64,000 nucleotides of DNA from Bacillota bacterium (GTDB lineage Bacteria > Bacillota > Limnochordia > Darwinibacteriales > Darwinibacteriaceae), in NCBI GenBank assembly GCA_012520315.1, contig JAAYOM010000059.1, positions 25,316-89,315 on the forward strand. Reading direction: 5' to 3'. Below are positions 5,043 through 63,636 of the stretch, piece after piece; within the stretch, counting starts at the first letter, position 1; each line of letters starts with the position of its first letter. The position numbers and the translations under genes are program-made. Under the pieces are notes generated by a model. That model saw nothing but the letters and a program-made list of their open reading frames with translations, did not search any database and was not told where the DNA came from.

Positions 5043-5083
5043 TCTTAGTCTTGTGTGGTTAGGCCGGAAAGGAGAATTCTAAC

Positions 5084-5740: not shown

Positions 5741-5748
5741 AGCGGTTG

Positions 5749-35326: not shown

Positions 35327-36352
35327 TTGGACTTGCGGGAACTAGAACAAGCTATTTATAGGGCAGGTTTCGATGCCTTTGCCATAATGCCTGCCAAGCC
35401 AGTTAGATACATGCTTCCCATCCTCAGGGAAGCTCAAGCGGAAGATCGCTATCCTGATTTCGTGGATCCTAAGATCGACAGGCGCATCGATCCGAAAAAC
35501 CTGCAAAAGAGCGCTAAAAGCATCATCTCACTGGCCGTATCGTATTACACAGGGGACCCTGGCAACTGTCCTCCCCTCCAGGGAACCGTTTCGCGCTCAG
35601 CTTGGGGAGTTGATTACCATCAAGTTCTGGGCCAGGGCATGGACATGGTAATTGATTACCTCAGGCAGAATCTTGGTGCTGTAACCTGTACGAAGGCAGT
35701 TGATACCAGTTTTCTCATTGATCGGGCCCTGGCAGTCGAGGCTGGGCTTGGTTATCCTGGCAAGAACTGTGCCGTCTATGTGCCGCCCTTTGGGTCCTGG
35801 GTGTTCCTAGGGGAGATTCTGGCAGATGTGGATCTGCCCCCCACCAAAGGAGACGACCAGAATAATTGGGCGTGCCCAGCCGGCTGCGACCGATGCATCC
35901 GGGCCTGTCCCACAAAGGCACTTTTTGCGCCAGGGAAAATTCAGCCTAAACGCTGCATTTCCTATCTCACCCAGATGTCTGGACCGATCCCTCTCGACTT
36001 GCGGGAAAAAATCGGCAGCAAATTATGGGGTTGTGATATCTGCCAGCAGGTGTGTCCTATTAATCAAAAAGCAAGTCCCAGCCCACACAGGGAGTTTGAG
36101 CCTGTCATCGGCCCCCACGTCGGCTTGGTACCGCTCTTGGATCTTACGAAAAAAGAATTTGCCGAGCAGTTCGGTCAAACCAGCATGGCTTGGCGGGGCA
36201 AAAATGTACTGGCCCGCAATGCCTGCATCATCCTTGGCAATCAAGGCCGGACTGAAGTTTTGCCGTTGCTTGAAAAAACAGCCCGTGAGCATCCTAGCCC
36301 GATTGTCCAGGATGCTGCAGCCTGGGCCGTAGATAAACTTAGCAAAAACTAA
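35327..36352 (+). CDS. queG: tRNA epoxyqueuosine(34) reductase
   Basis: Two ferredoxin-type clusters are present (CDRCIRACP and CDICQQVCP). The C-terminus is HEAT-like. The start is TTG with GGAG upstream. Confidence 0.9.
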   Translation: MDLRELEQAIYRAGFDAFAIMPAKPVRYMLPILREAQAEDRYPDFVDPKIDRRIDPKNLQKSAKSIISLAVSYYTGDPGNCPPLQGTVSRSAWGVDYHQVLGQGMDMVIDYLRQNLGAVTCTKAVDTSFLIDRALAVEAGLGYPGKNCAVYVPPFGSWVFLGEILADVDLPPTKGDDQNNWACPAGCDRCIRACPTKALFAPGKIQPKRCISYLTQMSGPIPLDLREKIGSKLWGCDICQQVCPINQKASPSPHREFEPVIGPHVGLVPLLDLTKKEFAEQFGQTSMAWRGKNVLARNACIILGNQGRTEVLPLLEKTAREHPSPIVQDAAAWAVDKLSKN

Positions 36353-37689
36353 TTGATGCTCTGGCTCGCCCTTTCCAGGGCCCGTTTGAGGTGCTCACCA
36401 TAGGGACCGTTCCGCTGGGTCGTAGACTCCAGTGCCTGTTCCAGGAATGTTACCGCCTCTTCCCCGCCATAACGGCCAATGGAGATTGCCATTTGAGCCT
36501 TTTCCTCGTTCTCCTCGGGATAATGATCAAACATTTCCCTCAGCAGATTCCATCTTCGCTTCGCAGGAGGTCCATGGGATAAGAAGAGGGCTAGATACGG
36601 CAACAGGGGAGAATCGCGATTTGCCCGAACGAAACGCCGTATGGCCGGCAGCTCCTTGCCGCCAAAGGACTTCAGCAAGCTCCAGCACTCGAAGTACAAG
36701 GGATCATCTGGATCAAGGTCAGCTAGAATCTCCAGGATCAGATCGCTCACTTCCACAAGAACCCAGCGATGGCAATACACGAGCAACCGCATGAGAAAGC
36801 TTGGGTCAATATCCGGATTCACGGCCCGGGCCCCTAGGATCATCAGAATTAGATCGACTGCCTGATCATCTGGCTCGACATCTATGTGTTCGAAACTGGT
36901 AAAAAGGCTTTCGAAGAAATAGTCATACTTGTCCTTATCAAGTACAGTGTTGAAATCTGTGTAACCAGAGCCCCCCTGACGGAAGTTCCGAAAGACGCCA
37001 AGGTCTGATACTATGTTCCCCTTCACTATTGTCCGTTTTTGCCGTTCGGTAGCAAGATCCTCCAGCGGGAAATTGTAGTAGGGGGTGACCCTGAAGTTGT
37101 TCATTAATGTCTGCAAACCCTGCATGACCACCTGAATGCGGGGATGGCTGACCTTCAGCCACATAGGCCTTAGGCGTGCCCCCCGCAGCATTTTTGCTCC
37201 TGCGCGCCCCAGCATCAGGTTGAGTTTTCCTTCAACATCGATGTCCCTTTGCCTCAGAACCTGATGGGCTTTTTGCAAGATCGTGTCTAGATCCTCATCA
37301 ACAGAATCATTGGCAGCGCTGTAGCACCGCATCATCTGCCCATAGGCCTGCATGCGTAAACGCGTCTGCATTCCTGCTCCCTGTAGGAAGTGATCCACCA
37401 CATACTGAATATCCAGGGGAAATTGGTACTTATTTAAATCAGTAAAGAGTCCGTCCACCAAACGCTGTACTTCTGCATCTGCTTCCTCCAGTTCCCGTTC
37501 TCCTTTGAGGGCTGCACTAAGCATGGCCACAACCGCCAGTAACTCTAGGGATGCACTGTAGGCAGCCAGCATTAAATCCCTTTCATAGAAGAACATGCTC
37601 TCCTTGATCTCAAGGCAGGCCGCGACAAACCCGTCTACTGTGGTAATCTCTGTGATTTCTTCCGTAAGTTCTTCATAGTCCCTCAGCAA
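36349..37689 (-). CDS. uncharacterised 446-aa all-helical protein, C-terminal part HEAT-repeat-like
   Basis: The ORF is long with coding-like composition. It starts at TTG 8 nt after a GAGGTGGG that overlaps the rnhA stop. I recognised no family motif. The C-terminus (LLPYLALFL...AISIGRYGGEEAVTFLEQAL) looks HEAT-like. Confidence 0.5.
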   Translation of the reverse strand: MLRDYEELTEEITEITTVDGFVAACLEIKESMFFYERDLMLAAYSASLELLAVVAMLSAALKGERELEEADAEVQRLVDGLFTDLNKYQFPLDIQYVVDHFLQGAGMQTRLRMQAYGQMMRCYSAANDSVDEDLDTILQKAHQVLRQRDIDVEGKLNLMLGRAGAKMLRGARLRPMWLKVSHPRIQVVMQGLQTLMNNFRVTPYYNFPLEDLATERQKRTIVKGNIVSDLGVFRNFRQGGSGYTDFNTVLDKDKYDYFFESLFTSFEHIDVEPDDQAVDLILMILGARAVNPDIDPSFLMRLLVYCHRWVLVEVSDLILEILADLDPDDPLYFECWSLLKSFGGKELPAIRRFVRANRDSPLLPYLALFLSHGPPAKRRWNLLREMFDHYPEENEEKAQMAISIGRYGGEEAVTFLEQALESTTQRNGPYGEHLKRALERASQSIN

Positions 37690-38216: not shown

Positions 38217-38263
38217 ATTAATCATATCATACTATACATTTTTCTGTATTTGGAGAGAGAATA

Positions 38264-39031
38264 ATGAAGGGTAATCTTGAAAAAATAACTAGAGGTACAG
38301 AACATCTTGGACAAAGCTGTGTTTTCTGTCAACAGGATATTCAGGCCGAAGATGAGGTCATAGCTTGTCCCCGCTGCCGCAGCCCACATCACGTTCATTG
38401 CTGGAAAGACAAGGGCGGATGCGGCAAGACGGGATGTCCCCAAGTGGCCCAGGCTGTTCGGGGCGAGCGTCCCCAAGGGGATGGTCCCCCTCCGCCTATC
38501 TCCAGGAAGGTAATTGCCCTGGGCGTTGTGGCCATAGCTGCTATTATTCTGGCCTTTATCTTCTGGCCAAAGCCCCCTGACCCCGCCATGGGCCGAGCCA
38601 AGGTCGTTTTTATGGGGGAGGCCTACTTTGAGCTGAGCGAAGCTTTGACCGAACTTGCAAAAGAGTATAATGCCACGAGTGAAACAACCTATATTGACTT
38701 GCAGCTGCTTCCGCCAGGGGCTATGGATACAAAACTGATCGTACTGATCGCTGCCAATGAAGCACCGGATGTCATGGCTATCGATGACGATCGCTTCGCC
38801 TACTTTCTTGAAAACGATGTACTGCTGCCCTTGGGCGAAGATGAATCCGGCGAACCAATTTACGGAATGCAGCATCCGGCCCAGCTGACCAAATTGGTAG
38901 TGTGGAGTGACACTGACCATCCGCAGCAGGCATTAGAAGTATTACACTATTTCGTGGATCACATTCCCCCTCTGGATCTGAATCTGCTCAGGGAACTGGA
39001 AAGCCAGCCCTGGCCCTTCGGGATAGAGTAA
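38264..39031 (+). CDS. membrane protein: N-terminal prokaryotic RING-like zinc finger, one TM, short solute-binding-protein-like ectodomain
   Basis: The Cys/His pattern is CVFCQQDIQAEDEVIACPRCRSPHHVHCWKDKGGCGKTGC. The TM is VIALGVVAIAAIILAFIFW. The ectodomain (KVVFMGEAY...LIAANEAPDVMAIDDDRFAYFLENDVLLPL) resembles the first lobe of a family-1 SBP. A GGAGAGAG RBS is present. Confidence 0.55.
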   Translation: MKGNLEKITRGTEHLGQSCVFCQQDIQAEDEVIACPRCRSPHHVHCWKDKGGCGKTGCPQVAQAVRGERPQGDGPPPPISRKVIALGVVAIAAIILAFIFWPKPPDPAMGRAKVVFMGEAYFELSEALTELAKEYNATSETTYIDLQLLPPGAMDTKLIVLIAANEAPDVMAIDDDRFAYFLENDVLLPLGEDESGEPIYGMQHPAQLTKLVVWSDTDHPQQALEVLHYFVDHIPPLDLNLLRELESQPWPFGIE

Positions 39032-49160: not shown

Positions 49161-50261
49161 CTAGACCTCCCCCTCTGCCCAGCCATCTTCGGGAGGAAGT
49201 AAAGTGGCCCCATGGTCTTCCCAGGTTACATAAACCTGATCGCCTGCCTCACAGTCACAGTCAATTTTTTGGTATTCCACAACAGTAATTGACTTATTGC
49301 CAACTTTGATCCGAATGCGGATCTGTGACCCTGCATAGTGAACTGATAAGACTTCGCCAACAAATGCATTGGCTGTCTGTTCACAGGAGACACGCATCTT
49401 ATCCATATGAACTGCCAAGATGGCAGTCTGGCCTTCTTCTATGCGGTGCTGCCCGGAATTTCTGATTGTCACCACATGCTCGCCAAACTGAACCTGTGCA
49501 TGGGTCTCAGAGGTTTCCACAACTTTGACCTGCAAAATATTGCGATCACCGATAAAGGTAGTGACAAAATAGTTGACGGGATTATTATAAATATCCCGTG
49601 GACTGCCTAGCTGCTGCACCACGCCCTGATCCATAACTACTATACGGTCAGACATATTCAGGGCTTCCTCCTGGTCATGGGTGACATAGACAAATGTAGT
49701 GCCTGTTTTTTTCTGCAGCTGAGATAATTCGGTCTGCATGTGCTTCCTCAGTTTTAGATCCAAAGCCCCTAAAGGTTCGTCTAAAAGCAAAATAGCAGGC
49801 TCATTGATTAGCGCCCTGGCAATGGCAATCCTTTGCCTTTGCCCGCCGGACAATTGATGGGGCATGCGTTTTTCATAGCCAAGCATCTGCACAAGTTCTA
49901 AAACATCTGCAACCTTGCCCTTGAGCTCCCCTTCGCCCATGGACTTTTTGACCCTAGGGCCGTAGGCAATATTATCATAGACATTGAGGTGAGGAAACAA
50001 GGCATAGTTTTGAAATACAGTGTTCACGTTGCGCTTGTTTGGTGCCATGCCCCTTATGGAGCTGCCGTTTAAGAGGATGTCTCCCGAATGGACGCTCTCC
50101 AAGCCGGCAATGCATCTCAAGAGGGTTGTCTTGCCGCATCCGGAAGGTCCCAGCAGCGTCAGAAATTCCCCCTGTCTTATGTCAAACGAGATGTCTTTCA
50201 ACACATGAAAATCACCGAAAAACTTATTAATGTTGACTAGAGAAAGCAGTGGCTGTTTCAC
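49161..50261 (-). CDS. potA: spermidine/putrescine ABC transporter ATP-binding protein
   Basis: Walker A (GPSGCGKTT), the signature LSGGQRQR, Walker B (LLLDEP) and a C-terminal TOBE-like domain are present. I moved the start to GTG 50261 (GGAAAGGGG 6 nt upstream) because a strong promoter lies inside the longer track ORF. Confidence 0.8.
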   Translation of the reverse strand: MKQPLLSLVNINKFFGDFHVLKDISFDIRQGEFLTLLGPSGCGKTTLLRCIAGLESVHSGDILLNGSSIRGMAPNKRNVNTVFQNYALFPHLNVYDNIAYGPRVKKSMGEGELKGKVADVLELVQMLGYEKRMPHQLSGGQRQRIAIARALINEPAILLLDEPLGALDLKLRKHMQTELSQLQKKTGTTFVYVTHDQEEALNMSDRIVVMDQGVVQQLGSPRDIYNNPVNYFVTTFIGDRNILQVKVVETSETHAQVQFGEHVVTIRNSGQHRIEEGQTAILAVHMDKMRVSCEQTANAFVGEVLSVHYAGSQIRIRIKVGNKSITVVEYQKIDCDCEAGDQVYVTWEDHGATLLPPEDGWAEGEV

Positions 50262-50306
50262 AAAGAGCCCCTTTCCAGCTTGCGCAACTATTGTGGTTGT
50301 AAAATT

Positions 50307-50335
50307 AGTATAGTTTAACAAATATTGTCTGTCAA
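50307..50335 (-). promoter_or_regulatory. candidate sigma-A promoter of potABCD
   Basis: On the minus strand: TTGACA (50335-50330), a 17-nt spacer and TATACT (50312-50307). Confidence 0.55.
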
Positions 50336-50340
50336 AGTGT

Positions 50341-50898
50341 TCATTGAGCTGCCAGCGGCGACACCCTCTCATAAACTCCGCTTTTTCTTGCCAGAAGGCT
50401 AAACTCAACTAGATCTTTGCGGATCGTGCAAAAGTCATCATGAAAATCGGCAATGATGAGATTGACTTCCTTTTCGGTGTAAGTTCGCCCCTTGTCAAAG
50501 CTTTCAGCGATTTTTTCCAACACAATGCGCCTCTTCATCTTCTGGACAGGTAGACACTGAAGTTTACCAGCTTTGAAACAGGAGGCTATCACCTGTTCAC
50601 GATATTCATCCTCCCTTTGGGCTGGAAGGTGATCCCCGAGACAACCTGCCTGAACTAGTTCGCCGAGGGTGAGCTGGAATACATCTTCGTTGAGGCTGTA
50701 GATGGTGTAATACTGTTCTTTTCGGGAAGACACTATCTTCGCTTCCATCAGCTTTTTCAAATGGAAACAGACAGTGGATTTGGACAAATCCAGCCTTTCA
50801 GCTAGCAGTTCAACGTACATTGCCTCGATCATCAGGCTGTTTACTATGCGCAATCTGGAGTTATCTGAAAGGCACTTGAAAATTTCTGTTGGATTCAT
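50341..50898 (-). CDS. ArsR-family HTH regulator fused to a DUF2087 domain
   Basis: The N-terminus (FKCLSDNSRLRIVNSLM...STVCFHLKKL) is an ArsR-type winged helix. The C-terminus (GRTYTEKEVNLIIADFHDDFCTIRKDLVEFSLLAR) matches the DUF2087 pattern. Confidence 0.7.
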   Translation of the reverse strand: MNPTEIFKCLSDNSRLRIVNSLMIEAMYVELLAERLDLSKSTVCFHLKKLMEAKIVSSRKEQYYTIYSLNEDVFQLTLGELVQAGCLGDHLPAQREDEYREQVIASCFKAGKLQCLPVQKMKRRIVLEKIAESFDKGRTYTEKEVNLIIADFHDDFCTIRKDLVEFSLLARKSGVYERVSPLAAQ

Positions 50899-51070
50899 GC
50901 ACACACTTGATCAACGCCCATTTCACAAAGTAATTTTGCTAACGGCTTTATCCAGCCGCATTGATTATTCTATACTAGATTGCTCTTTATTTCAACATGC
51001 ATATACTTATATTATCAAATCTAATTCGACATAGGCTGATGTAGATTTGTGCAGATGTGTCCTCGACGCG

Positions 51071-51095
51071 AAAAAGGTCAGGCCTTCGCCTGACC
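51071..51095 (-). terminator. rho-independent terminator ending the ABC/TolC-like operon
   Basis: An 8-bp stem (GGTCAGGC / GCCTGACC) with a 4-nt loop is followed by TTTTT on the minus strand, 12 nt after the stop at 51108. Confidence 0.65.
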
Positions 51096-51107: not shown

Positions 51108-52370
51108 CTAGCTTTCCCTCAAAGCCTCTACAGGGGGAAGCTTTGAGGCCTGCAGGGCGGGGTAAAAGCCAAAGACTTGCCCCATCGCAACTGCCATGGC
51201 AAAAGATATCAAGGCTGCTGCAGGATGCAGCCCCCCTATATTGTTCAGTCTTGGATAGGTAATCTCCTGGACCAGCATATTAATGAGGCGATCAGCGGTA
51301 AAGTAGGCTGCAGCTAGACCGCAGGCCGCACCCAGTACCGAAAAGACCAGGGACTCGTTGAGAATCTGCCTGACAATGACTCCCTTTGATGCCCCTAAAG
51401 CCTTTCTTAAGCCGATTTCCCTTGTCCGTTCCACCACACTGACCAGCATGATGCTCAAAATGCCAATTGCGCTAATCAAGATGGAAATAAAGGCAAAAGC
51501 ACCCAAAAAGAGGGTGATAGTACGAATCTGGTCCCGGAAGAAGCGGGTGGACTCTGCGAAGTATTCACCCCGAACTTCCATCTCACCTAAAGAACGATCA
51601 GCCAGCAGCACCTGGGCTTCTTCCACAGCTTCATACACCATATTTGGTTTAGCTCTAATAATGATCTCGTGGTACAAAGGTTCATGATCCATCTCTGCCA
51701 TCCAGGCGGGCTGGGCGGCCCCTAGGGGGAAAATCAGATGAGCCTGGGAGATAAAAAACTCCAGAAGCGGCGATTGGAGTTTGTAGACCCCAATTACCCT
51801 AAACTCCGTACTAGCTTCTCCGTAGTTCCCCAGGTAAATAGACTTTCCCAGGGCAGACTGCTTTGGAAAAAGCTGCTCAGCAATGACCTCTGAAACCAGG
51901 ACAACCTTGTTCTTCTGCTCCTGATCAGCTTCAGTAAAAAACTGCCCCTCTACAAGCTCCAAACCCATGGTCTGTGCATAACCTGAGGTTGCTTCCGCCG
52001 TGCTGAACACACTATAGCCCACACCGTCTACCACAATACTCCGTTCCCATTGGCTTTGAAAGATAAAGGCAGAATCAATATACTCACTTGCTTCAAGCCT
52101 GGCTAAATCGCTGAAACGCAAATTACTGGTGGAACTGACCATCATTCCTCCATCCTCGAACTCTTCGTACTGAGCAACGCTAATTTTCGCCAAAGTGCTG
52201 CCCAGAGTTTCGGTTAGTGTGTCCATTGTGCCGGTAGCTTGCAGATTCAGGGACAAAATGATTGCCACAATCCAAACTCCCAAACCCATCTGGAGGATGG
52301 TCAAAAAAGAGCGCAGCGGTCTTTTAGCCATAACCCTTGCCGTAAACTTAAAAGTTTCCAACTCCATCAC
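51108..52370 (-). CDS. MacB/FtsX-type ABC permease (permease 2)
   Basis: The 420-aa product has TM1, a large extracytoplasmic domain and a C-terminal FtsX three-TM module (REIGLRKALGASKGVIVRQILNESL, PPVEALRES). Confidence 0.85.
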   Translation of the reverse strand: MMELETFKFTARVMAKRPLRSFLTILQMGLGVWIVAIILSLNLQATGTMDTLTETLGSTLAKISVAQYEEFEDGGMMVSSTSNLRFSDLARLEASEYIDSAFIFQSQWERSIVVDGVGYSVFSTAEATSGYAQTMGLELVEGQFFTEADQEQKNKVVLVSEVIAEQLFPKQSALGKSIYLGNYGEASTEFRVIGVYKLQSPLLEFFISQAHLIFPLGAAQPAWMAEMDHEPLYHEIIIRAKPNMVYEAVEEAQVLLADRSLGEMEVRGEYFAESTRFFRDQIRTITLFLGAFAFISILISAIGILSIMLVSVVERTREIGLRKALGASKGVIVRQILNESLVFSVLGAACGLAAAYFTADRLINMLVQEITYPRLNNIGGLHPAAALISFAMAVAMGQVFGFYPALQASKLPPVEALRES

Positions 52371-52375
52371 TCCCT

Positions 52376-53683
52376 TTAGTCAGTACGCAAGGCGTCTACC
52401 GGATTGGTTCTAGATCCAAGGTAAGCTGGGTAAACTCCAAAGAGGAGGCTCACTATTAGTCCCAGGGCAAAGCCAAGAAATATGCGTGTTCCCAGCATAC
52501 CTGTGTCGAAAAAGGCGCCAAGTGCCCTTTGCAACACATTAACCAACGCAAAGGACAGGAAAATACCGAAGATCGACCCGACAAGCCCGAGGGTGATCGC
52601 CTCCAGCATAAACTGTCTGAACACCATGTGCCGAGAACTGCCCAGGGCCATAGACAGGCCAATGGATTTTGTTCGTTTCAAAACCCTAGCAAGCATCAAG
52701 TTTAGAATATTGATCACCGCAATAACCAACCCTACAGAGGCTAGGACTCCAATCAGCAAAGCATAGCGCTGCATTTGCTTTTGCGACTCCCTGAACTCCA
52801 AGAGGGAGCTGCGCACCGCAATTAGATCCCCCCAGATTAAGCGGGCTTCACCCTCCACCGTCTCTGTTGCCGCGGCGATGTCAACACCTACATCAAGGCC
52901 AATAGAGACATTGGAAAACTGCGTCTGCCCACCTTCTCTGAAATAATCATAGGGCGAGCTTGTAACAGGGGCGTAAGCCATGCGCGGATCTCGATAAACG
53001 GTTAGTCCCCCTTCCGTGTCAGGTGGAGATTCAAGAACTCCAATTACAGTATAATCCAGGGTTTCCTCACCGCCGTGGACCGCCAAAGGAACTACCTGGC
53101 CTATGGGGTCATCTGAACCAAAGAGCTCTGCAGCTAAACTGTCCGGCAAGATAAGTACCCGGCTTTGGTTTTTCAGATCGTCAGCCACAAAGAAGTTGCC
53201 CCTTTGCAGCATTGCACCGCTGAAGGCAAAGTAACCCGGTGTGGTTCCCGTCACAAAAATGCGGTTTGCACCGTAAAATCTTGCAGCCATGGACATGTCA
53301 TCAGAGTCTTCTTCCGGGAGGAGGGGTGTTTCTGCCAGCCAGAAGCTTTCTACATAGGCGTGCATATTTGCAGGCAAGTGCCTGTGCAGCTCTTCCACTT
53401 CCTCCAGATTTGCACTCCAGTCTCCGCTCTCGGTTTCGGAACCAAGCAGCACCAGCGGGGCGCCGTCGCGCCTGCTGGATTCGGCCTTCCCTATAATTTC
53501 CAAAGTTCTAAAGTGCAGAGCCTCTTCATTGCCGCGCAGCTGCTGGCCCACAGATAAGAGCATGGCCAGGACAGTGATGATTACACCTACCCCCAGAGTG
53601 ATAGCTGTCACTACAAGCAAGGACTCCAGGAGCTGTTTTTTCGAATGTCGAACCGACCACTTAAACTGGTCCCATAGTGGCAA
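52376..53683 (-). CDS. MacB/FtsX-type ABC permease (permease 1)
   Basis: The 435-aa product has the same topology (KSIGLSMALGSSRHMVFRQFMLEAI, NPVDALRTD). Confidence 0.85.
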   Translation of the reverse strand: MPLWDQFKWSVRHSKKQLLESLLVVTAITLGVGVIITVLAMLLSVGQQLRGNEEALHFRTLEIIGKAESSRRDGAPLVLLGSETESGDWSANLEEVEELHRHLPANMHAYVESFWLAETPLLPEEDSDDMSMAARFYGANRIFVTGTTPGYFAFSGAMLQRGNFFVADDLKNQSRVLILPDSLAAELFGSDDPIGQVVPLAVHGGEETLDYTVIGVLESPPDTEGGLTVYRDPRMAYAPVTSSPYDYFREGGQTQFSNVSIGLDVGVDIAAATETVEGEARLIWGDLIAVRSSLLEFRESQKQMQRYALLIGVLASVGLVIAVINILNLMLARVLKRTKSIGLSMALGSSRHMVFRQFMLEAITLGLVGSIFGIFLSFALVNVLQRALGAFFDTGMLGTRIFLGFALGLIVSLLFGVYPAYLGSRTNPVDALRTD

Positions 53684-53695
53684 CGCTATCCCCTC

Positions 53696-55039
53696 CTAGT
53701 TAATTACAGCAAAAACCAGGCTTCGCAAATCCCGACCGCACAAGTTCCAGAGGTCAAGGAGTCTTTGGGCGTAGTCCATTTTGCTGTGGGCATGATCGTC
53801 CGCTGCCCTTTGCAGAGCCAAGGCGGTTTCCTGGACCTGAAGTTCTGTTACCAGGCCTGCTTCATACTGCCTGTGGCGAAGCTTAAGGTCAGCTTGTGCC
53901 TCCGCAAGATGCTCAGACTTTAGCTGAACCATCGCACGAGCCGACCTGACCCCTTGCACCGCGGAGCGCAGTTGGGCCAGCAAAGCACTTTCCTGCATTT
54001 CCAGGTCATGTTCGGCCTGGGCTGCCGCCAATTCCAGTTCTTCCAGCACAATGTTCCTCGGGTAGAGAGTTTTGGTAGCTGTCAGACTCATTTTCCAGTT
54101 CACAGGTTGGGAACTGGCTGGATCAGGACCAGACTGGTTAAGATTCAAATCGCCGCTGGCCTTAAGATCCCAGCCTCTGGTTTTTCGCTCCAAATCTAAC
54201 TCCTGCTGGGCCCGGGTCAGGCGGGCCTTTGCCTCCTGCAGCTGAGGGCTTGAGGCGAAGACTTCTTCTTTAAGCTCCTCTTCGGCCAGGTCCAACTCCA
54301 GAACATCGGTACTAATCTGCGGATCGTAAAGCGCACCTTCAGACTCACCCAGGAAAGCTCCGAGCTGAAGCTGCAGTTGCTGCAACTCTTTTTGTATGTC
54401 GGCTAATGTTTCTGCTTGCTTTCTTAGATCTTTCCTCAGATCCAAATCATCGTAATTGGGCGTCAGTCTTGCCGCCTCAAGGGAGGCCTCTAAATACTTA
54501 AGGTGTGCCTCTTCTTGTTTGCTAAGATCAAGTTTTTTCTTCAGCTGCACAAGCTGGCCCACCGTCTGGAGAACTAAGGTGTTGACCTGGGCCTGTCTTT
54601 GCTGCTGGGCAAGGCGCTCACTGGTTTCGGTTTCAGGCAGGGCGAAAAAATTATAGTTCAACGTAAGGCTGCCAGTTGGCTTAACGTCCAGTCTTTTTTC
54701 ATCAAATCCAACTCGAATGGTGCCGTCAAGTTCAAAGTACTGGCCTAAAGGCACATTTAGGCTAATGCTTCCCTCCGGCCCTGCAAACTTGCCGTTTCTA
54801 ACGCCTGCCGGTTCTGTCCTTGCTGTTATCTTAGGGTGCTTTTCTAAAGCTTCTCTTTTTTCGAGAAGCTCCTGTTCCCATAAAAACAGGGCGTGGCTGG
54901 TATTTTGCTCAAAGACCAGATCCAAGGCTTCTGCTAGAGTAATCGGTTTTAGCTCCGCTGCTCGGCTCAGTTTTGGGCACCCGGAGCAGATGACGATAAG
55001 CAGCCCTACGGTGAGTGCCTTAAGGACTCTATTTTTCAT
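53696..55039 (-). CDS. TolC/OEP-family outer-membrane-factor-like protein with recognisable beta-hairpin segments
   Basis: A signal peptide is present. There are two OEP-type repeats, each opening with a helix (ITLAEALDLVFEQN). Alternating-pattern strand segments follow (GSISLNVPLGQYFELDGTIRVGF, TGSLTLNYNFF; WDLKASGDLNLN, WKMSLTATKTLY), then long coiled coils. I preferred the ATG start at 55039, with AGGTGAG upstream. Confidence 0.7.
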   Translation of the reverse strand: MKNRVLKALTVGLLIVICSGCPKLSRAAELKPITLAEALDLVFEQNTSHALFLWEQELLEKREALEKHPKITARTEPAGVRNGKFAGPEGSISLNVPLGQYFELDGTIRVGFDEKRLDVKPTGSLTLNYNFFALPETETSERLAQQQRQAQVNTLVLQTVGQLVQLKKKLDLSKQEEAHLKYLEASLEAARLTPNYDDLDLRKDLRKQAETLADIQKELQQLQLQLGAFLGESEGALYDPQISTDVLELDLAEEELKEEVFASSPQLQEAKARLTRAQQELDLERKTRGWDLKASGDLNLNQSGPDPASSQPVNWKMSLTATKTLYPRNIVLEELELAAAQAEHDLEMQESALLAQLRSAVQGVRSARAMVQLKSEHLAEAQADLKLRHRQYEAGLVTELQVQETALALQRAADDHAHSKMDYAQRLLDLWNLCGRDLRSLVFAVIN

Positions 55040-56120
55040 GGTTCTCACCTGATTCTTCATACTTGCCGATCGTCTGCAAAAGCTTAATCCGAGCCTGGGT
55101 ATAGTTAGATAAAGCTACATGGTATTGTTCTTCCAGGCTGGCAAGCTTTTCTTGCTGGGCCACAATTTGGGCATTGCTTAACACACCGGCAGCATACTTG
55201 CTTTCTTCAGCCAGCAGAGCCTGCCTCTCCAACTTAATGTTACGTTCGTCCATTTCCAGATTATGCACCTGATCCTGCAGGGCGTAGTATTCTCCCCGAA
55301 TTCTGAAATAGAGGGACTGTTCCGCTTGCTGAAGGTTAATCTTGGCTTTTTCCTCCTGAACTAAAGCCTGTTCCAGCTCCACCCTGGGTGTAAAGGGGCT
55401 TTGGGCAATTAGCACTGCTTCCCGGGCTTTTTGCAGGCTCTCCCTGGCTGCCAGGACCTCTGAATCAAGTTCCAGGGCCAGTTCGTAACAGGTTTCCAGG
55501 CTATAGGTAAAGGGAACAAAATCAAGCAGAAGCCGTTCCGTCAAAGCTACCTCCTGATCATGGGGCAGCCCTAAAATACTGTTAAACTGCATGCGCTCGG
55601 TTTCCAAGTCAATGATTGCTTTCTGATAGCGATGTTCAGCGTCATACAGGCTGTTTTGGGCCCGTTCAATATCCAGGGTAGATAAAAGACCGGCCTTATA
55701 TTTGTTCTCATCTATGCCCAGCTGGTTTTCGGCCCGTTCTTTGGCTTCCCTGGCGTTTTCTACCATGGCTTCCTTTTCTAAAAATTGCTGGTAGCGGGTG
55801 CGGATTTGATCTTGGAGTTCTCTGCGCTTTTCTGCGTAGATTTCTTGGGCCTTGTCCCACTCCTGCTCTGCTTCGATCAGCATTTCTTCATCACCGACAA
55901 TCTGGGCCCTTTCCAGTTTAGCCTGGGCCTGCTGCCAATCTAAGGTGGCAATTTGGAAGTTGAGATTGCTTTCATAGGCCAGATCTACTGCATCCTTAAC
56001 GGTAAGTTCCAGAACCTGTGCACCGGCCAGTGCGGAAAAGCACGTTATAAACAAGCAGGCCAGGGCGGCCAGGAACATAGGCTGCACGCTTCTTGGCACA
56101 TTGGCTTTTACCTTAAGCAT
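55029..56120 (-). CDS. TolC/OEP-like protein, short form that appears purely helical
   Basis: It has a signal peptide (MFLAALACLFITCFSALAGA) and OEP repeat openers (LTVKDAVDLAYESNLNFQIA; SLETCYELALELDSEVLAA...SPFTPRVEL). The sequence runs straight into coiled coil where TolC proteins have strand hairpins. Confidence 0.6.
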   Translation of the reverse strand: MLKVKANVPRSVQPMFLAALACLFITCFSALAGAQVLELTVKDAVDLAYESNLNFQIATLDWQQAQAKLERAQIVGDEEMLIEAEQEWDKAQEIYAEKRRELQDQIRTRYQQFLEKEAMVENAREAKERAENQLGIDENKYKAGLLSTLDIERAQNSLYDAEHRYQKAIIDLETERMQFNSILGLPHDQEVALTERLLLDFVPFTYSLETCYELALELDSEVLAARESLQKAREAVLIAQSPFTPRVELEQALVQEEKAKINLQQAEQSLYFRIRGEYYALQDQVHNLEMDERNIKLERQALLAEESKYAAGVLSNAQIVAQQEKLASLEEQYHVALSNYTQARIKLLQTIGKYEESGENHEK

Positions 56121-56808
56121 CTTTTTCCATTCCCTTCGTTGCTCGATCTTCTACAATGGTTCCATCCCGCAGTGCAACCAAGCGTTTTCCGTAGGTGCTT
56201 ATGTGTGAGTCATGGGTAACAATCACGATGGTGGTTCCCTGCTCATTCAGCCTTTGCAGAATGCCCATGATTTCTGCTCCTTGATCAGTGGCCAGATTGC
56301 CGGTGGGTTCATCTGCTAAAATGAGTGTAGGATTGTTGGCCAATGCTCTGGCAATAGCCACCCTTTGCTGTTCACCGCCGGAGAGTTGGGTGGGAAGGTG
56401 ACGAAGGCGATGCTCCATCCCTACACTGGCCAAAAGGCTCTCAGCCTTCACTAATCTTTCCCGCTTCGGCTTGCCTGCGTACATCAGGGGAACCATCACA
56501 TTTTCCAGCGCGCTTAGTTCTGGAAAGAGGTTGTAGCTCTGAAAAATGAAACCGAAGTGGCGATTGCGAATCTGGGCAAGTTCTCGGTCTTTAAGGCGGG
56601 TGATATCCACATCTTCCAAAAAGTAAGTACCGGAGCTGGGCTGATCGAGTACTCCCAAGACATTCAACAAGGTGGACTTGCCTGATCCAGAAGGACCCAT
56701 AATCGATAAAAACTCGCCCCTCTGAATAGTAAGGTTGATCCGATCCAGGGCTCGAATTTCCACATCTCCCATGTAATATTCCTTGCTGATTCCCTCTAAC
56801 CTAATCAC
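56113..56808 (-). CDS. MacB/LolD-type ABC transporter ATP-binding protein (stand-alone)
   Basis: Walker A (GPSGSGKST), the signature LSGGEQQR, Walker B ([10 protein letters not shown]) and a Q-loop context (FIFQSYNL) are present in a 231-aa product. Confidence 0.9.
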
Positions 56809-58112
56809 AACTCATGTCCCCCCTCGGGCAGAATTTGGATCTCATCTAGATGGCGGAAAGCGTCATAGGAACTGATAATGACCTGTTCTCCCAGCTCCAG
56901 GCCACGCACAATCTGCACTGCATTGCCCTGCAGAAGGCCAAACTGCACATCGCGCTTGCGGGCCCTATCACCATCGATTACATATACGAAAAGCTGCTGG
57001 CCGCTGGTCAGGTAAGCCCCGCGGGGAAGAAACAGGCTGTCTTCATGCAGCTGCAGATGAATATTAGCCGTCACTTGACTGTTAGGCCTCAGGTGCGACA
57101 CCTCGCCCAAAAAATCTACTCTGACCAGCACTGTTGAGCCGTCTGTACCCTGCTTCGCCTGGGGCGCAATATAGGAGACCTCACCTTTATACGTGGTTTG
57201 TCCGAGAGTGATATCGACCTCGGTTCCAATGCCAAAGCGTTCTGTCTGACCGGGAGAAACCTGGAGTTCTACCACCTGGCTGCTTAAATCAGCCAGTTCT
57301 CCAAGTTCTTGGTGGGCGGTGACAATACGATTAGCAGGGATTTTCAAGGAGAGAATTCTTCCTGTATAGCCTGCTGTTATCACAAAGTTATCAATCTTTT
57401 CCTGGGCCTTGGCCAGCTTTTCTTCTGCCATAGCAATTGTCTTGCCCAGGGCCGCTTGATCCGCCTCGTGCTTGCGGGTCAAAAGTTCAAGTTCCCGTTC
57501 ACTTTGGACAATTCTGCGCTTGGCTGCTTCTACATTCTGCTCTGCCTTCTCAAGGTCAACTCGGGGAATGGAACCATAGCCAAAGAGTATCTCTTGAAGT
57601 TCTAGATCGCTTTCTGCTTGGCGCAGCTGTTCCTTGGCATCGAGAACTTTGACACGTTCTGCTTCCATCTCCAACTCTTGATCAATCCCTAACTGGGCAA
57701 GTTTTGTCCTGGCCTCTGCCAGTTCAGTTTCGGCAGCATTGCGCTCTGCAACTGCTTCAGCACTGTAGAGGCGCATTAGGGGCTGGCCTTCCACTACATC
57801 CTGGCCCTCCTGGATCAAAATCTCCTCAATTGTACCGGCAATTTTTGGTTCGAGCACTACAATTTGTTTAGGAATAATCGTGCCCCGTACCTGGAGGGTT
57901 TCTAGAAAATCCTGTGTCCCCACTGAGGCATAAGTATAAAAATTTAGGATGAAGTTGTCCTGTTTAGGCATAAAAAAGTAATAGGCGCCGTAGGCAATGA
58001 GGCCAATGGTAATAATGGTGAAGATAATTAGACTGAGCTGTTTGTTAGCACTCGATTGCTTATGCTTTTTCTGCTGCTTGCGAAGCCGTTCTGGTACGAT
58101 AGGTTCGTTCAT
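56805..58112 (-). CDS. HlyD/MacA-type membrane-fusion (periplasmic adaptor) protein
   Basis: An N-terminal TM is followed by a lipoyl-like motif (GTIEEILIQEGQDVVEGQPLMRL), a long coiled-coil hairpin and a beta-barrel C-terminus. I placed the start at ATG 58112 (MNEPIV), with CAGGGAGG upstream. Confidence 0.8.
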   Translation of the reverse strand: MNEPIVPERLRKQQKKHKQSSANKQLSLIIFTIITIGLIAYGAYYFFMPKQDNFILNFYTYASVGTQDFLETLQVRGTIIPKQIVVLEPKIAGTIEEILIQEGQDVVEGQPLMRLYSAEAVAERNAAETELAEARTKLAQLGIDQELEMEAERVKVLDAKEQLRQAESDLELQEILFGYGSIPRVDLEKAEQNVEAAKRRIVQSERELELLTRKHEADQAALGKTIAMAEEKLAKAQEKIDNFVITAGYTGRILSLKIPANRIVTAHQELGELADLSSQVVELQVSPGQTERFGIGTEVDITLGQTTYKGEVSYIAPQAKQGTDGSTVLVRVDFLGEVSHLRPNSQVTANIHLQLHEDSLFLPRGAYLTSGQQLFVYVIDGDRARKRDVQFGLLQGNAVQIVRGLELGEQVIISSYDAFRHLDEIQILPEGGHEL

Positions 58113-58391: not shown

Positions 58392-58422
58392 AAAAAGAGA
58401 CAGAACACAGGGTCCTGTCTCT
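58392..58422 (-). terminator. rho-independent terminator after the aldo/keto reductase gene
   Basis: An 8-bp stem (AGAGACAG / CTGTCTCT) is followed by TTTTCG on the minus strand. Confidence 0.65.
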
Positions 58423-58436
58423 CCATTTCGTTAATT

Positions 58437-59414
58437 TTAGGCTAGAATCTCTTCGATTTTCTCAAATGTCTCTGGACTTAACTCAACATCGACTGCCTTG
58501 ACGTTTGCTTCAATCTGATCCGGACGAGACGCACCAACTAAGGCACTTGCCACATTAGGCTGGCGCAGAATCCAGGCCAAAGCCATTTCCACAAAGGTTA
58601 TGCCCAGTTCTCCTGCTAAATCTTCCAGAGCATCCACTTTGGCCATTACGCCGGATGCGATTAGCTCTTTAATCCATGCATTGATCTCGGGATTGGAGGC
58701 CCTTGTTCCTGCAGGGATCTGACCGCCCCGGTACTTGCCCGTCAAGAGCCCTTGGGCTAGTGGTGAGAAAACAATCTGGCCAATCCCGTATTTTTCGCTA
58801 ACGGGAATGATCTCCGGCTCAATGTAGCGGTTCAGCATATTGTACACCGGCTGGTTCACCACAATACGATCGAGCAGATAGCGATCGGCTACAGCAACTG
58901 CTTCTTCGATCTGGGCTGCAGTCCACTCGCTTACTCCCGCATAGAGCACCTTGCCTTGGCGAATCAGATCGTCAATCGTGCGCAGAGTCTCTTCCACTGG
59001 AGCTTCCGGATCATAGCGATGGCAGTAGAAGATATCGACATAATCCAGTTCCATCCGCTTTAAGCTGGCATGGAGCTGCTCAAAGACATGTTTGCGAGAC
59101 AGGCCCCGATCATTTGGTCCGTCCCCCATGGGCCAGAAGGCCTTGGTGGTAATTACATAGGACTCCCTTGGAAATACGCTCAGCGCTTTGGCCATTACCT
59201 TTTCGCCCTGGCCCTGCTCATAAACATTGGCAGAATCAAATGAGTTGATTCCCAGTTCATAGGCCCGACGAATGGTCTTGATGGCGATATCATCTTCCAC
59301 AGACTTTCCATAGGTCAGCCAGCTGCCTAATGAGATCTCGCTGACTTTCAGGCCTGAGTTACCTAATCTACGATACTTCACGTTCTCATCTCCTTTTCTC
59401 TCAACTTTCTGCAA
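58437..59414 (-). CDS. aldo/keto reductase (Kv-beta / YajO-like)
   Basis: The 325-aa product contains [31 protein letters not shown] and NQPVYN. Confidence 0.9.
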
Positions 59415-62400
59415 AAGCCGCCGACAACATTAATTTGATCCTGTTGAGCTGATTAACTTCACTTGCCCCAGGGTCATAGTCTATTGGGATAATATTACTA
59501 TGTGGGTAAACTTTTTTCAAGCCCCGCAACATTCCCTTGCCCACCACATGGTTTGGCAAACAGGCAAAGGGTTGCATACAGACAATATTGTTCACGCCGC
59601 TTTCAATTAACTCCACCATTTCACCAGTGAGGAACCAGCCTTCCCCGGTCTGATGACCCAAAGAAATTACTTTAGAAGCATTTTTGGCCACTTCTTGAAT
59701 CAGTTTCGGCGGGCTGAACCTCTTGCTCGCTGCCAGTGCTTTTCTATAGGTTCCACGGTAAAATTCCATAATCTCGATCAGGGCATTACAGGCCGCCTTT
59801 TCAATTCTGCTGCCCGCTAAATACCTGTACTTGAAATCAAAGCCCAGGAGGGAGTACAGAAAGAAGTCCACAAGTTCAGGCACAACCGCTTCGGCACCTT
59901 CCGCTTCGACCAAGCCCACCACGTCGTTGTTGGCAGTAGGGTGATACTTGACCAGAATTTCACCAACTAAGCCTACCTTAGGCTTGGTCGCTTCTACGGT
60001 CTCCAAGGCATCAAACTCTGCTACTATGCCTAGGATGTTGTCCCTAAACTTCCTAGGCGAATAAGAGGACATAGACTCCTCGCAAATTTTCGCCCATTTC
60101 TCATAAAGTGCATTGGCAGAACCGGAAATTCTTTCATAGGGCCTCACCCGATAGAGGCATTTCATGAGCAGATCCCCATAGACTAGGGCAACCATGGCCC
60201 TGTGCAGCAGGGGAATAGTTATTTTGAACCCAGGATTCTTTTCAAAACCTTGAATGCTTAAAGAAAGAACCGGCACTTGGGGGTAACCTGCATCCTTCAG
60301 CGCTTTGCGCAAAAAGCCGATGTAGTTTGTAGCCCGGCAGCCTCCGCCCGTTTGGCTGATAACCACGGAGGTGTTGTCTGGATCATACTCGCCAGAGTTC
60401 AATACTTTCAGCAGCTGCCCGACAACAATGATTGCAGGGTAGCAGGCATCGTTATTCACATACTTGAGGCCTACTTCCACCGCATCTTTATCCATGGCGG
60501 GACAAATCACAACATTATACCCTGACAAAGCCATCGCCTTCTCCAGGAACCGGAAATGGATGGGGGCCATTTGCGGTACGATGATCGTATGCTCCTTCTT
60601 CATTTCCTTGGTGAAAATTTTTCTTCTGTAGCCTGGCTGCGGGTCCTTCGGCTGATGTCCTTGCTTATCACGTTCGGCCATGGCCGCCTGCAAGGAACGA
60701 ATTCTAATTCTGGCCGACCCTAAATTGTTCACTTCATCAATCTTCAAACAAGTATACATCTTAGAACGGGCGGAGAGAATTTCTTCCACCTGATCGGTGG
60801 TCACCGCATCAAGTCCGCAGCCAAAGGAGTTTAGCTGCACCAATTCAAGGTTCTTTTCTCCGGCGACAAAACTTGCAGCAGCATAGAGACGGGAGTGATA
60901 TGCCCACTGATCCACAACGCGCAAAGGCCTAGCCACTTCGCCTAAGTGGGCTACGGAATCTTCAGTTAAGACCGCCATGCCCAAATCATTGATCATTTCA
61001 GGAATGCCGTGGTTGATCTCTGGGTCAAGATGATAAGGCCTCCCCGCCAGGACAATTCCTTTCAGGCTTTGTTCAGCGAGATAAGCAAGGGTTTCCTCTC
61101 CCTTATTTCCCATATCTGCCTTGTACTTCTTCAATTCAGCCCAGGCCTTATCCACAGCACTTGTTACTTCCTCAGCCCCGACACCCAGCTGCGCCAGTTC
61201 TTCAGTCAAACGTTCTGTCAGCCTTGCTTTGTGATCAAAGGGCAGGAAGGGGTACATAAACTTGATGCCTGCCTCATGCACCTGGATCACATTGTTTTTG
61301 ATAACTTCCGGGTACGAAATCACAATGGGGCAGTTGAAGTGATTATCTGCCTCTTTTTGTTCTCGTTGATCATGGGTCAGGCAGGGGTAGAAAATCAGAT
61401 CCACACCTTTTTCCACTAAATCAACTACATGGCCGTGGGCAATTTTTCCTGGATAACAAACGGATTCTGACGGTATGGTCTCCATTCCTTTTTCATAAAT
61501 CTCTTTAGTTGAACGGGCTGAGAGTACCACAGAAAAGCCCAGTTCGGTAAAGAGAGTGAACCAGAACGGATAATTTTCATACATGTTTAAAACCCTAGGG
61601 ATACCGATCCGTCCCCTTTTGGCCTCTTCTGGATCCAGGGGTTTATAGGCGAAAAGTCTTTTGTAGGAATAGTCAAAGAGGTTGGGTAAATCTTGCTTGG
61701 TCTTCTTGACCCCCGCGCCTTTGCTGCAGCGATTGCCTGATATATGCCTCTGTCCTTGGCCAAAGTGGTTAATGGTCAACAAACAGTGATTGGAGCAGCC
61801 CTTGCATCTAGTGAGCTTGGTTTCGACAGACAGATTCTCCAAGGCATCCCGTTCAAGCAAGGTAGACGCATAGCCTTCTACATGGCGTTCCCGGGCTATC
61901 AGTGCCGCCCCGAATGCACCCATGATACCGGAAATATCCGGCCGGACAACTTTCACATCTGCTAAAAGTTCAAAGGCCCTTAAAACAGCATCGTTATGGA
62001 ATGTTCCTCCCTGTACAACTACCTTCTCGCCCAATTCTTCCTTGCTTCTCAATTTAATTACTTTGTAAAGTGCGTTCTTAACTACAGAGTAAGCCAGTCC
62101 GGCAGAAATCTCACCGACAGTGGCACCTTCCTTTTGTGCCTGCTTAACCCTGGAGTTCATAAATACAGTGCAGCGAGAACCTAAGTCAACTGGGTTTGGG
62201 GCAAGCAAAGCTGCTTCAGTAAACTCCTGAATACTTAAATTAAGGGAAAAGGCAAAGGTTTCCAGAAAAGATCCGCAGCCTGAAGAACAGGCCTCATTTA
62301 AAAGAATATTGTCAATGGCCCCATCCTTGATATGCAGGCACTTCATGTCCTGACCGCCTATATCCAAGATAAAGTCTACACCGGGCCGGAAAAACTCGGC

Positions 62401-63636
62401 CGCCTTGTAGTGGGCTACTGTTTCTATTTCGCCAATATCCACTTTCAGTGCGGCTTTTATCAAGCCTTCACCATATCCTGTAACCACTGAATTGGCGATC
62501 TTGGCACCCTTAGGCAAGGCCTTATACATTTCCAGCACTGCTCCTCGCACAGACTCCAAGGGTTTTCCTTCATTGCTGCCGTAGTAGCTGTGCAAAATTG
62601 CCCCGTCTTCATCTATAAGGGCTGCTTTTGTTGTGGTTGAACCCACATCGAGACCTAAGAAGCACTTACCTTCATAACCTTCTAGATCCCTCCTGGCAAC
62701 AGAATGCTTATTATGCCTGGCGCGAAAATCATCTAACTCCTGCTCATTGTAAAACAGAGGACGGAGCCTGATTGTCGGCTCAATAGATACATCCTGCAGC
62801 CCATTAATTCTGTCCATAAGCTCAGAAAAAGCAATTGATTCGCTGTCCCTGGCACTTAATGCTGCTCCGATGGCAATATATAGCTGCGGGTTTTCTGGAA
62901 AGATCACCTGATGATCCTTTAGTTCCAAAGTTTCAATAAACCGTTGCCTAAGCTCAGACAGGAAGTAAAGCGGTCCGCCCAAAAACGCCACATTCCCTTT
63001 AATCGTTCTGCCGCAGGCTAAACCGCTGACTGTTTGCACCACTACAGATTGGAAAATAGAAGCTGCCACATCTTCTCTGGCTGCCCCGTCATTTAATAGG
63101 GGTTGAATATCTGACTTGGCAAAGACACCGCAGCGGGCGGCTATGGGGTAAATTGTGGTATAACCCTTGGCAAGCTCATTTAGGCCAGCAGCATCTGTCC
63201 TTAAAAGAACCGCCATCTGATCTATAAAAGAGCCTGTCCCGCCGGCACAGATGCCATTCATCCTTTGCTCGATGCCGTCCTGGAAAAACGTGATTTTGGC
63301 ATCTTCTCCCCCTAGTTCAATGACAACATCGGTTTCGGGAAAGAAAGTCTGAATCGCCTTGGTCCCCGCGATCACTTCCTGCACAAAATCCACTTGCAGC
63401 AGTTCTGCTGCGGCAATGCCGCCGGAACCTGTGATGTTTAAAGTTATCGGATGATCGCCAAGCTTTTCATAGGCTTGTGTTATCAGGCTCACAACAGATT
63501 CTTTGATATCAGAGTAGTGCCTTTCATATTTAGAGAAAATCACTTCCAGCTGCTCATTTAAAATCACAATTTTTGCTGTTGTTGAGCCAACATCAATTCC
63601 CATGTGTACGAGCGTATTCAAAAAAAGATCCTCCAT
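59401..63636 (-). CDS. fused BadF/BcrA/HgdC-type double ATPase (activase) plus DUF2229-type C-terminal half; BCR/2-hydroxyacyl-CoA dehydratase superfamily, substrate unknown
   Basis: There are two acetate/sugar-kinase-type phosphate-1 motifs ([14 protein letters not shown] near aa 13 and [14 protein letters not shown] near aa 330). A Cys cluster ([10 protein letters not shown]...CSKG) and about 750 aa of C-terminal region follow. The total is 1411 aa. Confidence 0.8.

Follow-up and report, generated by a model that had tools for sequence, protein, structure and literature searches.

A six-gene operon of a Bacillota bacterium (Darwinibacteriaceae) was analysed in a 64,000-nt stretch of DNA, hereafter the window (positions 25,316-89,315 of contig JAAYOM010000059.1, assembly GCA_012520315.1). 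Its genes lie on the minus strand in the order adaptor, ATPase, OEP-A, OEP-B, permease 1 and permease 2, and we consider with good confidence that they encode a MacAB-TolC-like (type VII ATP-binding cassette, ABC) trans-envelope exporter. The two genes in the middle code for TolC paralogs of which one, OEP-A, is predicted to lack a beta-barrel, and the other, OEP-B, to bear one with more strands than that of TolC. The best explanation for the whole, with a probability of about 0.45, is an exit duct made of both OEP proteins, preferably in series, on a MacAB-TolC-like pump in a Firmicute with an outer membrane.

The two TolC paralogs

Domains were called on the six proteins with Pfam at curated cutoffs, and all assignments lie above cutoff; both middle proteins belong to the OEP family (1.2e-21 for OEP-A and 1.3e-14 for OEP-B). 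In the AlphaFold2 model of OEP-A (28-sequence alignment, pLDDT 89.4) the protomer is all helix: helices 78-142 and 246-310, each of 65 residues, make up with their partners the alpha-tunnel of TolC, and TolC's two beta-hairpins are replaced by a tight turn of 2 residues (76-77) and one of 6 (240-245). The Foldseek matches of OEP-A at E<=0.001 were exclusively outer-membrane factors. At the N-terminus, a hydrophobic stretch (residues 12-30) precedes AGA/Q, and there is no lipobox; read from the sequence, such a signal peptide would leave mature OEP-A soluble in the periplasm. OEP-A has both canonical adaptor-docking tips (K-A-G-L-L-S, 143-147, and A-A-G-V-L-S, 311-315), and its distal turns are conserved (R71, A72, V75 and G76 in one; A239, P242, F243 and P245 in the other).

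An exhaustive profile search with OEP-A through 1.84 billion representatives returned 1435 proteins at E<=1e-10; among the best 150 of these, about 100 were full-length, at 346-400 aa, and lacked an insert at both barrel positions, as do the members of the close family. The remote relatives that carry a name are from Limnochordia or Firmicutes metagenome-assembled genomes (MAGs). A subfamily of short TolC-like proteins (362-390 aa; P0173, P0189, P0196, P0228, P0232 and P0243), one of them labelled Syntrophomonadaceae, has an insert of only 10-25 residues at the first of the two barrel positions and lacks one at the other. Such short-insert proteins may be intermediate forms, the insert being too short for a transmembrane hairpin. 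A homolog search with a profile of diverse barrel-less OEPs brought back mostly the close family again and gave no usable distant barrel-less matches on long contigs.

Because OEP-A is without the part that defines an outer-membrane channel, it might be read as the non-functional relic of a decaying TolC duplicate whose barrel was lost. We give this reading hardly any credence, and the conservation data effectively refute it: the frame is intact, more than 70 clusters have a constant length of about 355 aa, 51 alignment columns are invariant, OEP-A is better conserved than OEP-B or either permease, and its architecture recurs in roughly 100 representatives of remote clusters. The constant family length and the invariant columns also exclude a truncation artefact.

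The AlphaFold2 model of OEP-B (pLDDT 81.5) has the TolC fold, with strands at 70-130 and 290-323, and was matched to TolC by Foldseek at 5.7e-17 (TM 0.60). The beta-region of its repeat 1 (about residues 70-131) is roughly twice the usual length and consists of four amphipathic strands, gap-free in 27 family members; repeat 2 has the usual two, so that there are six strands per protomer compared to four in TolC. On the outward face of the strands, 97% of the residues are hydrophobic and 0% charged, and Trp, Tyr and Phe form a girdle at the strand ends (27 sequences); the opposite face is polar with 27% charged residues. This strict alternation over six segments in 27 sequences looks like that of a barrel embedded in lipid. 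In OEP-B, repeat 1 has an atypical tip (L-T-P-N-Y-D-D).

In a profile-profile comparison, the OEP-A and OEP-B families were matched with 91% probability at 21% identity over a single repeat. Judged from these alignments, the two are ancient, very distant paralogs of unlike architecture. The first-pass annotation of this DNA had called the middle genes duplicated TolC-like genes and had seen in them two TolC-like exit ducts; the family was recognised correctly, but the genes are distant paralogs rather than duplicates, and both the missing barrel of OEP-A and the six strands of OEP-B had been overlooked. The long helices of the two proteins are equal in length (65-66 residues) and TolC-like. 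Of the features by which a TolC-family protein is known, the duplicated OEP repeat folded as an alpha-helical tunnel was found in both (Pfam, AlphaFold2, and Foldseek matches to TolC, OprM and CusC), and one beta-hairpin per repeat in neither (0 strands in OEP-A; 4 + 2 in OEP-B). The TolC and NodT models of NCBIfam scored far under their cutoffs (40.8 vs 225 and 18.8 vs 210, respectively).

Recurrence of the gene order and components of the pump

The neighbourhoods of homologous operons were surveyed with one genome per GTDB species, which gave 26 loci, all from uncultured MAGs and mostly from biogas or digester assemblies. The six-gene order was kept in every locus long enough to show it among 26 species-level genomes, with the L030/L034 lineage as the single exception, and it was held down to 44% identity in OEP-A and 29% in OEP-B; its recurrence indicates that the arrangement is not due to chance. 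In L030/L034 no OEP-B gene lies between OEP-A and permease 1, and a divergent pair of a barrel-less and a barrel-bearing protein is encoded after the permeases (L030:1547-6256 and L034:7-5744), which may exemplify how a partner is shared or lost in nature. OEP-B has a mean identity of 45%, compared to 62% for OEP-A, and of the six proteins it shows the lowest identity in 11 of the 13 genomes; it is the protein that evolves fastest, which fits exposure at the surface. Two genomes of the UBA series have an extra MacB-type permease pair immediately upstream of the adaptor (L008:1768-4231 and L029:2244-4711), 33-35% identical to the pair of the window. In one of them (L029, UBA5493) the matches to the adaptor and OEP-B each fall into two pieces (4838-6290 and 8052-9499), which could be frameshifts, assembly gaps or pseudogenisation.

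A second pump was found directly downstream of the six genes in L033 (7001-12405; also L031:4263-6721), making eleven co-directional genes in total. It comprises, in this order, OEP0', OEPb', adaptor' (347 aa), ATPase' and a single permease'. OEP0' (352 aa) is 24% identical to OEP-A and colinear with the barrel-less profile, and OEPb' (467 aa) has a repeat-1 beta-region of about 70 residues, as judged by eye. Since the OEP pair occurs with one permease or with two, the pairing of the OEPs and that of the permeases are independent features. A scan of metagenomes with OEP0' alone gave 2 loci.

The domain assignments of the remaining four proteins agree with the types named in the first-pass annotation (a HlyD-type adaptor, a MacB/LolD-type ATPase and two FtsX-type permeases). 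The adaptor was matched by HlyD_D23 (5e-17) and HlyD_3 in Pfam and by TIGR01730 with 127.3 bits (cutoff 94.9), which places it in the membrane fusion protein family; its precomputed Pfam annotation lists BSH_YknX and YknX_C, among solved structures MacA and a MexC-like adaptor come closest to it, and its sequence begins with an N-terminal hydrophobic helix. The ATPase (ABC_tran, 3.9e-35) was aligned over its full length, from residue 1-2, with the NCBIfam models of the MacB nucleotide-binding domain (NBD; 260 bits), DarD (244), LolD (TIGR02211; 233, cutoff 307.75) and FtsE (218), and it lies below every equivalog cutoff, so that its membership in MacB/LolD/FtsE holds at the clade level only.

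Both permeases combine an FtsX domain with four transmembrane segments and a MacB periplasmic core domain (permease 1: MacB_PCD 3.2e-21, FtsX 2.3e-15; permease 2: MacB_PCD 2e-22, FtsX 1e-19). Permease 1 was matched to MacB (5gko) with 85 bits vs 28 bits to LolC, and permease 2 to MacB (5nik) with 95.7 bits and to the Spr0695-type permease 5xu1 with 89 bits; over both permeases, MacB structures gave 85-96 bits and LolC/LolF structures 22-28 bits, and the lolCE model TIGR02212 gave 25.5 and 28.9 bits against a cutoff of 362.45. Between permease 1 and permease 2 the identity is 26% (BLASTP), which suggests a heterodimer. A homodimeric, NBD-fused permease as in E. coli MacB was not found, there being two permease genes and a separate ATPase, and the scores with NF007826 (90-125 bits vs a cutoff of 966) mark a variant and not a MacB equivalog. 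The first-pass annotation was right that two non-identical permeases go with a separate ATPase, but the Lol-like logic that it read from this composition is a resemblance in gene count only, as both permeases are MacB-type.

Order, lengths and junctions of the six minus-strand open reading frames (ORFs) are as first annotated (Table 1). Along the operon there are overlaps of 4 nt (adaptor and ATPase), 8 nt and 11 nt (OEP-A and OEP-B), followed by gaps of 12 and 5 nt, and GGGAGG stands 7 nt ahead of the ATG of the adaptor at 58112. The clean terminator described after the last gene was confirmed as a strong intrinsic terminator, with a stem of 8 pairs, 6 of them G-C, read from 51095 to 51076 and followed by TTTTT. 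On the 5' side a terminator-like hairpin has the arms GAGACAG (58421-58415) and CTGTCTC (58403-58397) around an 11-nt loop; it was read directly, as the automated hairpin scan passed over loops longer than 8 nt. The same TTTTTCGCG tail ends both bracketing hairpins. Because terminator-like hairpins flank both sides, the six genes are bracketed as one unit, and together with the tight junctions this bears out the description as one compact operon; its anatomy suggests that the six genes are co-transcribed. Sub-operons were considered and rejected: promoter and terminator hits within the operon were weak, and their total was no greater than in shuffled sequence. A search of the whole window with Rfam at gathering thresholds found no regulatory RNA.

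Table 1. Genes of the operon and its bracketing hairpins (coordinates in the window)
Feature	Coordinates	Strand	Description
Adaptor	56805-58112	-	435 aa from ATG; membrane-anchored periplasmic, MacA/YknX-like membrane fusion protein
ATPase	56113-56808	-	231 aa; stand-alone ABC ATPase, MacB/LolD/FtsE clade
OEP-A	55029-56120	-	363 aa; barrel-less TolC paralog with signal peptide
OEP-B	53696-55039	-	447 aa; barrel-bearing TolC paralog, 4 + 2 strands
Permease 1	52376-53683	-	435 aa; MacB-type
Permease 2	51108-52370	-	420 aa; MacB-type
Intrinsic terminator	51076-51095	-	13 nt past the permease 2 stop; GGTCAGGC-gaag-GCCTGACC then TTTTT
Terminator-like hairpin, 5' boundary	58392-58423	-	3' of the upstream aldo-keto reductase gene; then TTTTT

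The claim that no regulator, precursor, immunity or lipoprotein gene is adjacent fails in its regulator part. A gene for a regulator with an ArsR-type HTH_5 domain and DUF2087 (50341-50904, minus strand) lies directly downstream, beyond the terminator of the pump; it overlaps the start of a potA-like ATPase ORF (49161-50408) and probably heads the next operon, which encodes a spermidine/putrescine-type ABC importer. The rest of the claim stands, as no precursor, immunity, cargo, LolA-like or lipoprotein gene adjoins the pump, and Pfam found no LolA-like gene in the window. By analogy with other MacB-family pumps, the substrate would be taken from the periplasm or the inner membrane's outer leaflet.

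Upstream of the pump, an aldo-keto reductase and a 1411-aa BcrAD_BadFG/DUF2229 fusion protein are encoded on the minus strand (58437-63636); the fusion is activase-like, of the 2-hydroxyacyl-CoA dehydratase type. The aldo-keto reductase gene is syntenic in most loci and was considered as a component of the system, but it was set aside because of the terminator-like hairpin that intervenes. Elsewhere in the window, two minus-strand ORFs (36349-37689, 446 aa, and 38222-38920, 232 aa) had no Pfam or NCBIfam match; the shorter one is overlapped by a 255-aa ORF on the opposite strand and its reality is uncertain. A 309-aa protein (5749-6678, minus strand) has a weak match to an IstB_IS21-type ATPase (1.4e-11); no obvious IstA partner was seen among the large ORFs, and the gene could encode a DnaC-like helicase loader or be a remnant of an IS21 element.

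Proposed arrangement of the exit duct and probable envelope of the host

In the mechanism that we propose, the motor would be a heterodimer of the two MacB-type permeases, driven by a dimer of the separate ATPase, and the adaptor, a membrane-anchored MacA/YknX-like protein, would serve as periplasmic sleeve. Two non-equivalent TolC paralogs, acting together, would form the exit duct. OEP-B would be the outer-membrane channel, with its six strands per protomer adding up to an 18-strand barrel in the trimer, and OEP-A, as a secreted and soluble TolC alpha-tunnel without a membrane part, would be an accessory periplasmic tunnel protein. A trimeric tube of OEP-A would dock tip-to-tip on the adaptor hexamer through its two x-A-G-[LV] tips and would join the periplasmic end of the OEP-B trimer in series; such a duct would extend the conduit through a periplasm that is wide or filled with wall.

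The serial arrangement, together with the contact between OEP-A and OEP-B that it implies, is put forward as a tentative preference, held at somewhat less than even odds. It is favoured because all components would keep C3/C6 symmetry, because the distal turns of OEP-A are strongly conserved, because L030/L034 manage without the cognate OEP-B, which suggests a small, exchangeable interface, and because TolC-like proteins with a reduced barrel appear to work alone in monoderm Firmicutes (PMC8809574).

As for the host, a protein identical to OEP-A has the accession NLL42775.1 ("MAG: TolC family protein [Firmicutes bacterium]"), and a near-identical locus is present in several metagenomes of biogas plants and anaerobic digesters. 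The homologs of OEP-A and of OEP-B each form a narrow family, and the named relatives of both are MAGs of Limnochordia, of unclassified Bacillota or of "Ca. Darwinibacter acetoxidans". Limnochordia have been reported to be diderm (PMC11456536; PMC11448272). The window encodes a CwlD-like amidase, aligned over its full length with TIGR02883 (219.5 bits vs a cutoff of 221.55), and carries cdaA-ybbR-glmM, which together are consistent with a spore-forming Firmicute. The best explanation is an uncultured spore-forming Firmicute with an outer membrane, belonging to Limnochordia in the sense of GTDB. The first-pass remark on a CwlD-like amidase in a spore-forming host is in line with this; an ordinary monoderm host is not, given the Limnochordia relatives and the lipid-facing OEP-B. 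The window also encodes a 278-aa protein (6879-7715, minus strand) with a Glucodextran_C match (2e-41), a cell-surface binding module similar to surface-layer homology (SLH) domains, which may bear on the type of surface layer of the host.

Several points weigh against a serial duct in a diderm host. All stoichiometries, the contact between OEP-A and OEP-B and the serial arrangement are what we infer, as is the outer membrane of the host, which follows from taxonomy and from OEP-B itself. The strand registers of OEP-B were picked from the hydrophobicity pattern, so that the test of its two faces is partly circular. Markers of an outer membrane (BamA, Lpx, OmpM) were not found in the window (Pfam, four batches, in which only housekeeping genes were seen), and the class of the digester clade MBA03/DTU010 is contested (Limnochordia according to GTDB and SILVA, Clostridia according to PMC12663870). 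Stacking in series makes the conduit about 100 Å longer, and the literature searched gave no measurement of the width of the periplasm in these organisms, the OmpM paper included. Finally, the two extra strands of OEP-B are left unexplained by the serial model.

These strands are accounted for if one OEP-A and two OEP-B stand side by side in a single TolC-like trimer, in which three protomers would contribute a 12-helix alpha-barrel and the two OEP-B a 12-strand beta-barrel (2 x 6 + 0 = 12, the number in TolC). Such strand bookkeeping explains both oddities together (0 strands in OEP-A and 6 in OEP-B), and the same 0 + (4 + 2) pattern recurs in the divergent second pair, with the strands of OEPb' counted by eye. 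The 11-nt overlap of the OEP genes and their co-occurrence almost without exception, the equal lengths of the helices, and the lack of an anchor in OEP-A, which lateral packing would hold in place, also speak for a mixed trimer. However, each OEP-B would have to span 180 degrees of the barrel but a 120-degree sector of the helices (reasoned, not computed), with a 60-degree offset between identical OEP-B protomers across very short helix-strand linkers; an OEP-A without the cognate OEP-B in L030/L034 is hard to square with an extensive, co-evolved lateral interface, and no heteromeric outer-membrane factor was found described in the literature searched. We consider the mixed trimer, although the main rival of the serial duct, unlikely. 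Doubtful, too, is an arrangement in which trimers of OEP-A and OEP-B dock on the adaptor separately, as alternative ends, and OEP-B exports across the outer membrane. It would agree with the two canonical docking tips of OEP-A as opposed to the atypical repeat-1 tip of OEP-B, with L030/L034, which keep OEP-A without OEP-B, with the CwlD-like gene of the host, and with the diderm Firmicute Veillonella parvula, for which neither a Lol system nor lipoproteins of the outer membrane have been identified (PMC10665443). The strict adjacency and translational coupling of OEP-A and OEP-B suggest equimolar joint use instead, no cargo, LolA-like or lipoprotein gene is close by, and as to the substrate such an arrangement is speculative.

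It might also be that the host is effectively monoderm and that both OEPs sit in the cell wall or in an S-layer and not in a lipid outer membrane. TolC-like proteins occur in 12 monoderm Firmicutes, in pump operons, and among them are a TolC-like protein of Clostridioides difficile with a reduced barrel and one operon with two TolC-like genes (Stubenrauch et al. 2022, PMC8809574). The placement of the clade in Clostridia by the Darwinibacteriales paper (PMC12663870), the SLH-like Glucodextran_C protein of the window and the Syntrophomonadaceae label of one short TolC-like subfamily point in the same direction. We nevertheless regard a monoderm host as improbable, because the outward face of OEP-B, hydrophobic, uncharged and with an aromatic girdle in 27 sequences, contrasts with that of the C. 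difficile model, which was reported to be hydrophilic (PMC8809574).

A further-reaching reading, possible but held loosely, is that Firmicutes of the Limnochordia type have an as yet undescribed two-piece duct, in which a free-standing OEP-A tunnel couples the adaptor sleeve to a separate 18-strand OEP-B (or enters the mixed trimer of one OEP-A and two OEP-B), and that the barrel-less piece is the evolutionary source of the puzzling TolC-like proteins which monoderm Firmicutes have kept since losing the outer membrane. The L030/L034 lineage, from which one OEP-B has already been dropped, could be an intermediate toward such proteins.

Significance and comparison with known systems

Tripartite pumps are understood almost wholly from Proteobacteria, whose exit ducts are assembled from three copies of a single TolC-type protein and have a 12-strand barrel. 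If the present reading is true, a conserved and translationally coupled pair of duct paralogs, in which one member has no part in the membrane and the other has 50% more strands, would bridge the envelope in a new way and would be the first division of labour between paralogs in an exit duct. This pair is present in one of the few lineages of Firmicutes that retain an outer membrane; it bears on how envelope-spanning machines were adapted in the transition from diderm to monoderm cells, and on why monoderm Firmicutes without the beta-barrel assembly machinery (BAM) keep TolC-like proteins, a question raised in PMC8809574. The carriers (relatives of MBA03/DTU010) are abundant in anaerobic digesters, and the pump may matter for their ecology.

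The literature search supports the first-pass statement that no characterised pump has this composition. Within a library that does not extend to most subscription journals, it found no description of a large family of paralogs wholly without a barrel, none of a systematic pairing of such a protein with a six-strand, lipid-facing paralog, and none of a heteromeric or two-tier exit duct or of any pairing of exit-duct paralogs. Reduced-barrel TolC-like proteins are already known in Firmicutes; what we could not find described is the pairing of a barrel-less with a six-strand paralog. PltIJKNOP of Pseudomonas was considered as a precedent and rejected, as the paper describes one permease and two CcdA/LysE-like proteins.

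The operon resembles MacAB-TolC of E. coli (PDB 5NIK) in its MacB-type permease, its ATPase of the MacB/LolD clade, its anchored MacA-like adaptor and its TolC-family exit protein, and the mechanism, i.e., mechanotransmission with the substrate expelled from the periplasmic side, is probably shared. It differs in that the ATPase has a gene of its own and that two permeases and two TolC paralogs are encoded within the operon, whereas tolC of E. coli is unlinked and its product is a homotrimer with four strands per protomer. With LolCDE it has in common two non-identical permeases of the MacB superfamily and a separate LolD-like ATPase; LolCDE works with LolA/LolB and is without an adaptor or an outer-membrane factor, whereas here an adaptor and two OEP genes are part of the operon. 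The Gram-positive MacAB-like pumps YknWXYZ of Bacillus subtilis and Spr0693-0694-0695 of Streptococcus pneumoniae are similar in the YknX-type domains of the adaptor and in the separate genes for the ATPase and the MacB-type permease, but they have a single type of permease and no OEP component.

Closest to OEP-A are the proteins of Stubenrauch et al. 2022 (PMC8809574), with which it was compared by description, not by sequence. They too are OEP-family proteins of Firmicutes whose operons also encode an adaptor and an inner-membrane transporter, and OEP-A shares with them the reduced or omitted barrel. The hosts there are monoderm, the structures are homology models of single proteins, and a location in the S-layer was proposed; the pairing of a barrel-less with a six-strand, lipid-facing protein, in a lineage reported to be diderm, is not described there.

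Pumps in which two paralogs share one structural role are known from other parts of the assembly. TriABC-OpmH is a tripartite pump with two paralogous adaptors. MdtBC is a heterotrimeric transporter of the resistance-nodulation-division (RND) type (PMC8277102). In both, as in the operon described here, two paralogs fill one role, but there it is that of the adaptor or of the inner-membrane transporter, and not that of the exit duct.

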